Below, one piece after another: positions 60,280-63,023 of a stretch of 64,000 nt of DNA. Under the pieces are notes generated by a model. That model did not search any database. It worked only from the letters and a program-made list of their open reading frames with translations, and was not told where the DNA came from. This DNA comes from Pseudovirgaria hyperparasitica. Lineage: Eukaryota. The position numbers were made by a program, and so were the translations under genes. Each line of letters opens with the position of its first letter. The stretch's first letter is position 1. The stretch lies in the NCBI GenBank assembly GCA_010093815.1, contig ML996568.1; one strand, given 5' to 3'.

Positions 60280-63023
60280 TTAAAGATAGTTAGTCAATGT
60301 TTGGTTTACGGGGTCAGAGGACGTACGGATGCCTTCGGTCGGAACAGGCACAATATTAGTGATCTCTGCTGCCTTTGGAGCAGTATTGTCGATCGGCCTC
60401 ATCATTGGGAAGGTTAAGACTTCCTTGATGCTGTAGTGATTCGTCAAGAACATAACCAGTCGGTCAATACCCATGCCAAAACCTCCTGTTGGCGGGAGAC
60501 CGTCTATAAAATATTAGCTTTCCAAATAAGTAGCGTAGGGAGAATATTGACTTGCATTCTAGAGACTCGCAGAAAGTCTCATCGATCAATTGTGCTTCAT
60601 CATCTCCTTGGTCCTTCTGGTTTGCTTGCTCCTCGAATCTTAATCTCTGGTCAAAAGGATCGTTTAACTCCGTATAAGCATTCACAATCTCTTTTTTGCA
60701 AACAAACGCCTCGAAGCGTTCGCAGAGCCCTTTCTCGGATCGATGGTATTTGGCCAGCGGCGACATCATCTGTGGGTGACCCATGATGAAAGTTGGGTTG
60801 ATGCAATCTTCCTCAATGTACTCACCCACCAAAGCATCGAGCATGCGAGCATTCGTTAGTGGCGGGGTACACTCAAGACCAGCCTTCTTGATAACGCCTC
60901 TGAGAAAATCATTGGTGTTCTTGTCATGTAGCGTTTCTCCAGGAGGAAATTGAACATCTAGCTTCTCCTCGAGAGTCTTGATCATATGCACTTTCTTCCA
61001 CGGAGCTTCCCAGTTGACAGTATATTCTTCCCCGTGTTGAGTAACAAACTTGGTAACATAGCCGCCAGTGATATACTTGACCAGCGAAGATACGAGTTCC
61101 TCTGTTCGACGCATCATCACGTTGTAGTCAGCGAAGGCTTCGTAGAATTCAATGGTGGTGAACTCGGGGTTGTGAGTAAGATCAATGCCTTCGTTACGGA
61201 ACTGACGGCCTATCTCGTACACTCGTTCCATACCCCCAACGATCAATTGCTTGAGGTATAGCTCCGGAGCGACACGCATGTACAAATCCTGGTCCAAGTC
61301 GTTGTGGAAAGTCTTGAAAGGTCGAGCTGTAGCGCCACCAGCGATCTGGTTCATCATTGGGGTCTCGACCTCAATAAAACCATGCTCGTCGAAGTACTTG
61401 CGGATGTATGTGACCATTCTTGCCCGAGTGATGAAAGTCTGTCGGACATTATCGTTCATAATTAGATCAAGGTGCTTACGTCGGTGGCGCTCTTCCATGT
61501 CTTCGAATTTGCTGTCCTTGCGAGTTCCAGGGAGGAGATGCAGACAAGGCGAAAGAAGCCTGACCTCAGTTGCGAATATGCTTAATTCACCTTCCTCAGT
61601 CTGTCTACTGGCAGGATTCGTCCTCCCAGGGTACCCGATGATCTCAACGATATCGCCTCGTCGCAAGTGTTCATGTTGCTTGGCGAAGTCACCCTTGGCG
61701 AATTCCTTCTGACACATGACTTGGACTTGAATTCCTTGAGAGCGGATGTCGTAGAAGACTAGGTTGGAACCAGCTGATCTCATGGTATAGATTCTGGCGC
61801 CGATGCGCATTTCCTTCGGAGCGCGCAACACTGGGTGCCATGATGAGCTCACATTCTCCAGGACGGTCTCGCCTTGTGCATCTCTTAATATCGAGTCATG
61901 TCCGTTTAATACCTCGCTACTGTGAATGTATGTCTGAACTGGGAACGCTGATTGGAGCTTCTCAAGTGTGATGAGCTTGTAGAATTCTACAGGCTTGTCG
62001 CCATCAACATCCACAACCTCCCAATATTCTGCAGGGGTACTGTCCGGTTCCGCAACTTCTTCGGGTGCCTCGGTCTTCTCATCCTCCTTCTGCCTATTCT
62101 TCGCGATGGCTGCCTTTTTCTCAAGGGCCTCCTTGCGCTTCTTCTCGATGGCCTCTCTTCTCTTCTTTTCTGACTCCGTCTCTTCTCTAACAAGCTTGAG
62201 AGACCCCTGCTGGTTGCCAGGCTTCACGTCAAAAATGAGACCACTCTTCTTGACCTTCTTGCCTGCATCAAGTGATACTAAGTATTTGTGCTCTCCTCGT
62301 TGTCCACTAGAAACCTTGGCTGCTTTGATGAACCTCAGAGGTGCCTGGATCGCGCCAGCTGCAGCCTCTAACGCTGGAAGTAGGCTCTTGTTGGGGTGGT
62401 CTACGGCCAATCCGCCAGCTTTTGCCTTCGCGGCCGCATCTTCCGGGCTGATCGAGGTACATTTTTCATAACCCTGTACGCGTTGAACGAACAAGGAGCG
62501 CCCTGCCTCGGGAGTATAGCTTGCTGCCTTGGTGGATTCCCCGAAAGTGCTGTAAAAGTCGAAGAGGTCTTGGTTGCGAACATCGACTTCGTGTGGGTAG
62601 GGATTGGGCTCGTGTGACTCGCGCAGCTTGTTGATCGTCCGACTTCTGATTTCGAAATATTGCTATCAGACAGTAAATATCAATTTGAAAATGTGATCGG
62701 AATGCATCACATTCGGGTTCAGGTCTGCCTCATTGACGGCGCCAGCAGCTTTCTTAGCAGCAGGCTTTGGTGGGGCAGTAGCAGCCTTCTCAGCCTTCTT
62801 CTTTTCGTTCTCCCGCTGCTTCTGTCTCTTCTTCACTGTAGATCTGAAGTTAGACAAAGCCTACTGGAATTTCGGTAGACTTCTCACATTCACTCTTGGA
62901 GACACGCTCCCCTGTAACCTCGTCGAGCAGTAGCTTGGGAGCACCTTCAGCAGCAGACTCGCCAGTATTTCCTGTGACACTGCTAACCACAGCCTCCACT
63001 GCGTTCTTGACAGATTCGGCCAT
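60280..63023 (-). CDS. KRS1: Cytosolic lysyl-tRNA synthetase (class II) with a large N-terminal insertion; introns 62887-62836, 62710-62663, 60555-60504
   Basis: NPNQYFEIRS, NPYPH, OB-fold (RIGARIY...FYDI...RRGDIV), motif 1 FIEVETPMM...GGATARPF, motif 2 [15 protein letters not shown] and motif 3 [17 protein letters not shown] after splicing. Confidence 0.95.

Follow-up and report, generated by a model that had tools for sequence, protein, structure and literature searches.

The cytosolic lysyl-tRNA synthetase (LysRS) of Pseudovirgaria hyperparasitica has gained a net 232 residues where length is otherwise constant, in the linker that joins the conserved PYPH motif to the anticodon-binding OB fold. 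The insert is real, exonic and an orphan, and it lies unremarked within a public gene model. By every catalytic feature tested the enzyme is a class II cytosolic LysRS, and it departs from the family in this linker. The gene is located on the minus strand of the 64,000-nucleotide stretch of DNA that was analysed (the window), where 261 stop-free codons separate NPYPH from RIGARIY (window 61808-62590, -). A reading made from the sequence alone had proposed an in-frame insert of about 230 residues at 61811-62560; its size, its open frame and its region are borne out by the measured interval, with only the high end having been placed slightly short. The fungus belongs to the Acrospermales within the Dothideomycetes and has been described as a mycoparasite of rust sori (PMC3317363).

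A linker of fixed length and its exception

The distance from the PH of PYPH to the [AGS][GA]RI motif of the OB fold is 263 residues in P. hyperparasitica versus 31 in 115 of 119 other homologs by pattern. The remaining four, which the pattern missed, are canonical by eye, bringing the count to 119 of 119 other fungal LysRS. This homolog set consists of the best 120 of 1416 proteins (the query included), which are top-scoring Pezizomycotina with no close relative among them. The sequence-only reading had asked whether the segment is common to fungal LysRS, and in this set it is confined to the query. Among 28 LysRS loci from metagenomes, the linker is canonical in 21 by pattern and in one by eye, one locus is truncated, and five (L050-L054) have an apparent intron within the same linker, after its helix. 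A metagenome scan with the OB domain returned no close relative, the closest loci showing 44-64% best-segment identity over the domain. Of the family features tested, the 31-residue spacing expected of a class II cytosolic LysRS is the one in which the query, at 263, stands apart. Fungal LysRS of normal length have been described at 594-630 amino acids (PMC4301749).

Among the database records examined, a single species and a single record carry an insert-bearing LysRS. The record (P0003, 851 amino acids, named lysyl-tRNA synthetase, Pseudovirgaria hyperparasitica) is identical to the translation of the exons in Table 1, the third of which lies inside a 732-codon open frame. No description of the insert was found in the literature listings and abstract openings covered.

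Table 1. Features of the LysRS gene within the window, with residue numbers referring to the 851-residue protein
Feature	Coordinates	Strand	Evidence
Coding exon 1 (residues 1-45, from the initial Met), where the eukaryotic N-terminal extension begins	62888..63023	-	Translation, P0003, splice joint
Intron 1, 52 nt, GT-AG	62836..62887	-	Skipped in X1 and X2 contigs; sequence
Exon 2, native Lys-rich N-terminal helix (model helix 43-64) and linker	62711..62835	-	Contigs, full model
Intron 2, 48 nt, GT-AG	62663..62710	-	Contigs; sequence
Exon 3, encoding the first anticodon-domain helix, the insert, the OB fold and most of the catalytic domain (residues 88 to about 790)	60556..62662	-	One piece in both contigs; Pfam PF01336, PF00152
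Conserved PYPH motif, 108-111; near-invariant following KF is EV here	62591..62602	-	Alignments
First half of the native 31-residue linker, 112-132; model helix 120-128, block pLDDT 79	62528..62590	-	Anchored profile, full model
Insert core, residues 133-349, about 217 codons; boundaries approximate	61877..62527	-	Alignments and profile tests
Residues 196-245, four predicted strands, pLDDT about 35-41; weak likeness to linker and OB strands 1-2	62189..62338	-	AlphaFold; profile
Residues 249-283, long charged helix, 14 K/R and 9 D/E	62075..62179	-	AlphaFold; charge count
TPAEYWEV, 296-303, aligned to the conserved TPNQYFEI-type motif after the native N-terminal extension	62015..62038	-	HMM and profile alignments
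Second linker-like stretch, 327-359, whose end corresponds to the native linker's GE-containing second half	61847..61945	-	Profile
13 extra codons (39 nt, in-frame) with GT and AG ends, immediately ahead of the OB fold	61814..61852	-	Contigs, sequence
Anticodon-binding OB fold, 373-462, confidently modelled (block pLDDT 77-93)	61538..61807	-	Pfam, alignments, full model
Intron 3, 52 nt, GC-AG (GC donor)	60504..60555	-	Contigs; sequence
Exon 4, with class II motif 3	60327..60503	-	Open frame, P0003, contigs
Intron 4, 48 nt, GT-AG	60279..60326	-	Contigs; sequence
Final coding bases and stop codon	60268..60278	-	Translation, P0003, contigs

Transcript evidence comes from the contigs of two public runs (X1 and X2) made from one sample, possibly from the sequenced strain. 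Neither run is recorded as RNA, and both appear transcript-derived as read from their splice joints. All four introns of Table 1 are absent from these contigs, and exon 3 is unbroken across both insert junctions with zero differences from the genome. Since the spliced contigs retain the insert, it is neither an intron nor an assembly chimera, and a spliceosomal intron is rejected; splicing and an assembly chimera were among the outcomes that the sequence-only reading had named as refuting it. That the insert results from a chimera or a mis-annotation is extremely improbable: the single species and single database record would be in keeping with such an error, but separately assembled spliced contigs, though from one sample, are identical across both junctions. 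An intein is likewise rejected, as no Pfam or NCBIfam intein family matches the insert and its translation does not end in His-Asn, just as had been noted at the outset.

Contigs lose rare variants, and the evidence they provide covers the main splice form. A minor splice form or protein processing that removes the insert from the working enzyme would go with this loss and with a good GC donor at 62524, directly after the first linker half. Such removal is nonetheless very unlikely given the single path in both runs and the lack of any intein family match. Moreover, when 725 in-frame donor-acceptor pairs were passed through a rough filter, no pair had both a donor score of at least 3 and a branch motif, and this motif was also missing from all 11 pairs that would restore a spacing of 25-45. 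As a separate observation, the LysRS transcript contig continues beyond 59800, giving a 3' stretch of at least 470 nt toward a neighbouring amidase gene (59800-60278, -).

Anatomy and predicted structure of the insert

Remnants of the native linker may be recognised at both ends of the insert. In a start-anchored profile whose score is reached by 23-27 of 2000 shuffles, the 21 residues directly after PYPH match the first half of a normal linker, and residues 327-359 resemble a linker in a match that is weak on its own (128-150 of 2000 shuffles). With native linker halves at both ends, about 217 residues would be looped out of the linker. By alignment and model, the first half would stay after PYPH and the second half before the first OB strand, so that a normal homodimeric LysRS would most likely build its anticodon domain from both flanks and carry the insert as a flexible surface loop. 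The end of the OB barrel that the linker segment caps is remote from the face that reads the anticodon, which would explain why the insert is tolerated.

In the AlphaFold prediction of the insert alone, made from a single sequence, mean pLDDT is 41, and a helix and four regularly spaced strands appear at low confidence (about residues 175-246). A 33-residue charged helix (250-282) is the only confidently predicted element of the insert core, its block reaching pLDDT 70-82 in the insert alone and 81-89 in the full model. Four elements are placed with confidence in the full-length model, which was built from 60 sequences: helix 120-128 of the linker, helix 250-282 of the insert, the native helix at the N-terminus and the OB fold. 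Confidence is low in the rest of the insert, and its strands are absent. Since this model is weak overall (mean pLDDT 56; rmsd 11-12 Å to solved LysRS by VIA superposition), the packing of the split linker cannot be read from it.

Searches for a relative of the insert were consistently negative. In a set of 5.8 billion proteins, near lengths returned only its own record and none of 3098 candidates of shorter length matched, near and shorter lengths being the range searched. There were no matches among 1.84 billion representatives (50%), none among 595 stretches from JGI metagenomes, and none in its own genome other than the insert itself. PDB sequences contained no relative. Pfam returned nothing scoring (best E 0.33) and NCBIfam nothing. 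A blank result was obtained from the ESM Atlas with the whole insert and with residues 20-137, although a blank there is uninformative. With the insert model, Foldseek gave nothing at E <= 0.001, a fold search made uninformative by the model's low pLDDT, and the best VIA hit (Z 6.0) had unrelated rows close behind, as expected of background.

These results bear on the proposal of the sequence-only reading that the enzyme had acquired a folded domain. With no homolog, family or fold found in any search and one confident helix only, a new folded domain is unsupported; a small real fold could be missed in a sequence without alignable homologs. A captured or newly evolved small alpha/beta domain (about 175-246, a helix and a four-strand meander) on a helical stalk, forming a new RNA- or protein-binding surface, is accordingly regarded as unlikely. 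It would account for the regular spacing of the strands in the single-sequence prediction and for the persistence of the 261-codon open frame in an essential single-copy gene, and lineage-specific inserts in trypanosomatid synthetases provide a precedent (PMC8319005). Against it stand a pLDDT of 35-43 in that region, the failure of the strands to form in the full-length model, the background level of the fold comparisons and the want of a sequence relative anywhere searched.

Possible origin from the gene's own N-terminal region

The best lead on the origin of the insert, as judged by sequence comparison, points to the gene's own N-terminal region instead of a foreign donor. No outside donor was found in the protein sets, genome and metagenomes searched. 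Tentatively, and at somewhat less than an even chance, the insert may be a decayed internal duplication that is looped out of a working anticodon domain and perhaps adds a second tRNA-contacting helix. Its source would be the 5' coding region of the gene itself, supplying the linker and the start of the OB fold, followed by the N-terminal helix, the TP-x-x-Y motif and the linker. The duplicated copy would have decayed almost beyond recognition into a mostly flexible, tolerated passenger. Within it, the charged 33-residue helix would be the one part to have retained its character, and it could either make further non-specific contacts with tRNA, as a second helix of this kind, or serve as a spacer.

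A profile running from the N-terminal extension through the linker aligns end to end, and in the right order, with insert residues 130-248. In both HMM and profile alignments, the charged helix of the insert falls on the native helix and TPAEYWEV on the TPNQYFEI-type motif. When 238 genome ORFs were cut into 1373 overlapping windows, no window reached the profile score of 55, and the highest (39) is the N-terminal extension of a class IIb paralog; charge-matched controls are few in this comparison, with 5-7 null ORFs as charge-rich as the insert. Block shuffles reach the same score in 58, 44 and 13 of 2000 trials (blocks of 10, 20 and 40), and a joint two-part model is reached by 23, 7 and 5 of 2000 at the same block sizes. 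With an HMM the corresponding count is 10 of 1000, and the score of a reversed profile is lower than the mean of its null. At 129 amino acids, the initial part of the insert is near the length of a linker and OB fold (123 columns).

Several results temper this likeness. Lysine and glutamate composition supplies much of the profile score. When the GE-containing linker half is left out, 188 and 104 of 2000 shuffles reach the score, and a profile without the charged helix is not aligned at the expected place (28 and 34 of 150). Composition-matched shuffles put p at about 0.02-0.09. Combined tests give p of about 0.003-0.03, and a stricter test 0.05-0.09, all of them chosen post hoc after the likeness had been seen. 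At the DNA level, no convincing repeat links the insert to exons 1-2; there are short two- or three-copy matches, mostly within AAG-rich codon tracts. A full second OB fold within the insert was considered and rejected, as an OB-only profile scores at or below its null, leaving a weak local match of residues 196-245 to the linker and strands 1-2 (4 of 150 shuffles reach its score; VIA within background). A tandem duplication would also be expected to keep the helix that adjoins the working OB fold, so retention of the distant one is not the simplest outcome.

In human LysRS, the N-terminal helix lies along the T-loop and anticodon arm of tRNA and contacts them through its basic residues, the lysines (PMC11643047). 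By analogy, a tRNA-binding role for the charged helix of the insert is plausible. Like the N-terminal tRNA-binding helix of eukaryotic class IIb synthetases (human LysRS 14-43; PMC11643047), the insert combines a long basic and acidic helix with an acidic linker and a TP-x-x-Y-x-E motif. It differs from the native N-terminal helix in being internal, in lacking the SKxxLKK motif and in its greater number of acidic residues, with 14 K/R and 9 D/E in 35 residues versus 10 and 4 in 25. Because of the missing motif and the added acidic residues, a spacer or neutral role is equally likely.

An orphan expansion of non-genic origin is a rather less probable account, in which a permissive surface loop grew, through retained introns or a series of small insertions, into a largely disordered, near-neutral linker and the helix is like the N-terminal one in composition only. 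The 39-nt in-frame piece just before the OB fold would fit such a history. Homologs have no residues there, and the piece is shorter than local introns and kept in the contigs, so it is possibly a small exonised intron. The apparent introns in the same linker of the five metagenome loci fit as well, as do the low pLDDT across most of the insert and the high divergence of the enzyme core described below. The synonymous codon score of the insert (0.026 +/- 0.021) is intermediate, within error, between that of the core (0.054) and those of non-coding DNA (-0.03, -0.09). By contrast, GC3 in the insert (0.56) is like that of the core (0.54), with local non-coding DNA at about 42-44% GC. In addition, local introns are just 48-52 nt, far shorter than the insert, as the sequence-only reading had remarked, and the ordered likeness to the N-terminus exceeds that of all genome windows tested.

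The host enzyme, related systems and neighbouring features

The protein has the domains of a class II LysRS, with a catalytic domain (PF00152, E 1e-64) and an OB-fold anticodon domain (PF01336, E 1e-8) both found by Pfam. It matches the yeast Krs1 structure 7f6w at E 9e-171 and scores above the cut-off of TIGR00499. The catalytic motifs, noted as intact in the sequence-only reading, are present, with FIEVETP, RQFRNE and HNPEF in exon 3 and motif 3 in exon 4. The OB residues R382, F390, Q401 and E446 are kept; these conserved positions have a role at the anticodon. A check for a second copy had been proposed, and genome searches, in which locus counts are lower bounds, found no other cytosolic LysRS. 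Other loci in the genome comprise a divergent LysRS (L002), probably of mitochondrial type, and class IIb loci resembling Asp and Asn enzymes. At L004 (G000:C11, about 1301000-1304000, -), an open frame of 1027 codons encodes an AspRS-like core preceded by a long N-terminus rich in Ser, possibly an enzyme of the ergosteryl-aspartate synthase type. Given that the gene is the sole cytosolic copy found and that its motifs are present, its product would be one 851-residue class IIb cytosolic LysRS that still charges tRNA-Lys as a homodimer.

Eukaryotic class IIb cytosolic LysRS (yeast Krs1, 7f6w; human KARS, 3bju and 9dpl) share with the query the N-terminal Lys-rich helix, the YFEI helix, PYPH, the OB fold and motifs 1-3. 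The query differs from them by its 232 additional residues in the PYPH-to-OB linker, by the replacement of KF after PYPH and by changes in its conserved core. At columns conserved in at least 90% of 59 homologs it shows 24 departures, versus a median of 4 and a maximum of 19, and many of the changes fall in two clusters, residues 469-483 and 644-678. Among 60 aligned LysRS, the OB and catalytic domains of the query (60327-61807, -) rank first or nearly first in divergence, and the N-terminal helix and YFEI-PYPH helix are no more divergent than average. The insert may be a neutral passenger in a fast-evolving gene. It is quite improbable that a duplicated N-terminus was instead remodelled into a selected module consisting of a second tRNA-binding helix and a small alpha/beta domain, such that two helices per subunit hold a tRNA or a partner and the core substitutions are co-adaptations. 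Were this so, a synthetase would have used its own sequence to make an additional domain within the anticodon domain. The name of a homolog suggested a connection with cladosporin self-resistance, for which the 10 papers listed by a literature search included only ones on the Cla4 kinase.

Appended domains are common in eukaryotic synthetases (PMC7373986). The WHEP, GST-like and leucine-zipper domains of multisynthetase complexes (PMC7373986) resemble the insert as extra modules that could mediate assembly, whereas the insert shows neither a Pfam match nor conservation; Pfam detected none of these appended domains in this LysRS. The insertions and extensions of trypanosomatid synthetases (PMC8319005) are, like the insert, lineage-specific exonic additions of unknown function, some of them Lys-rich and confirmed in mRNA. 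Several of them are conserved across genera, internal ones span 17-120 amino acids and none is in the trypanosomatid cytosolic LysRS; the present insert, in contrast, has 232 residues, lies in the anticodon domain and occurs in one species.

With the linker of one length in all 119 other fungal proteins measured, the insert indicates that an apparently essential LysRS can have its anticodon domain interrupted and that this domain presumably remains functional. The linker could therefore serve as a permissive site for engineering or tagging, and the insert offers a simple deletion test of how synthetases acquire appended domains. If the decayed self-duplication is true, the gene would provide a worked example of one route to such domains.

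Two further features of the window were noted. A convergent neighbour at 57446-59341 (+) is an amidase-signature family gene (PF01425, E 2e-27) with no apparent link to LysRS. At 56144-56359 (-), a His/Arg-rich frame arises from a simple trinucleotide-like tract and is probably low-complexity DNA.
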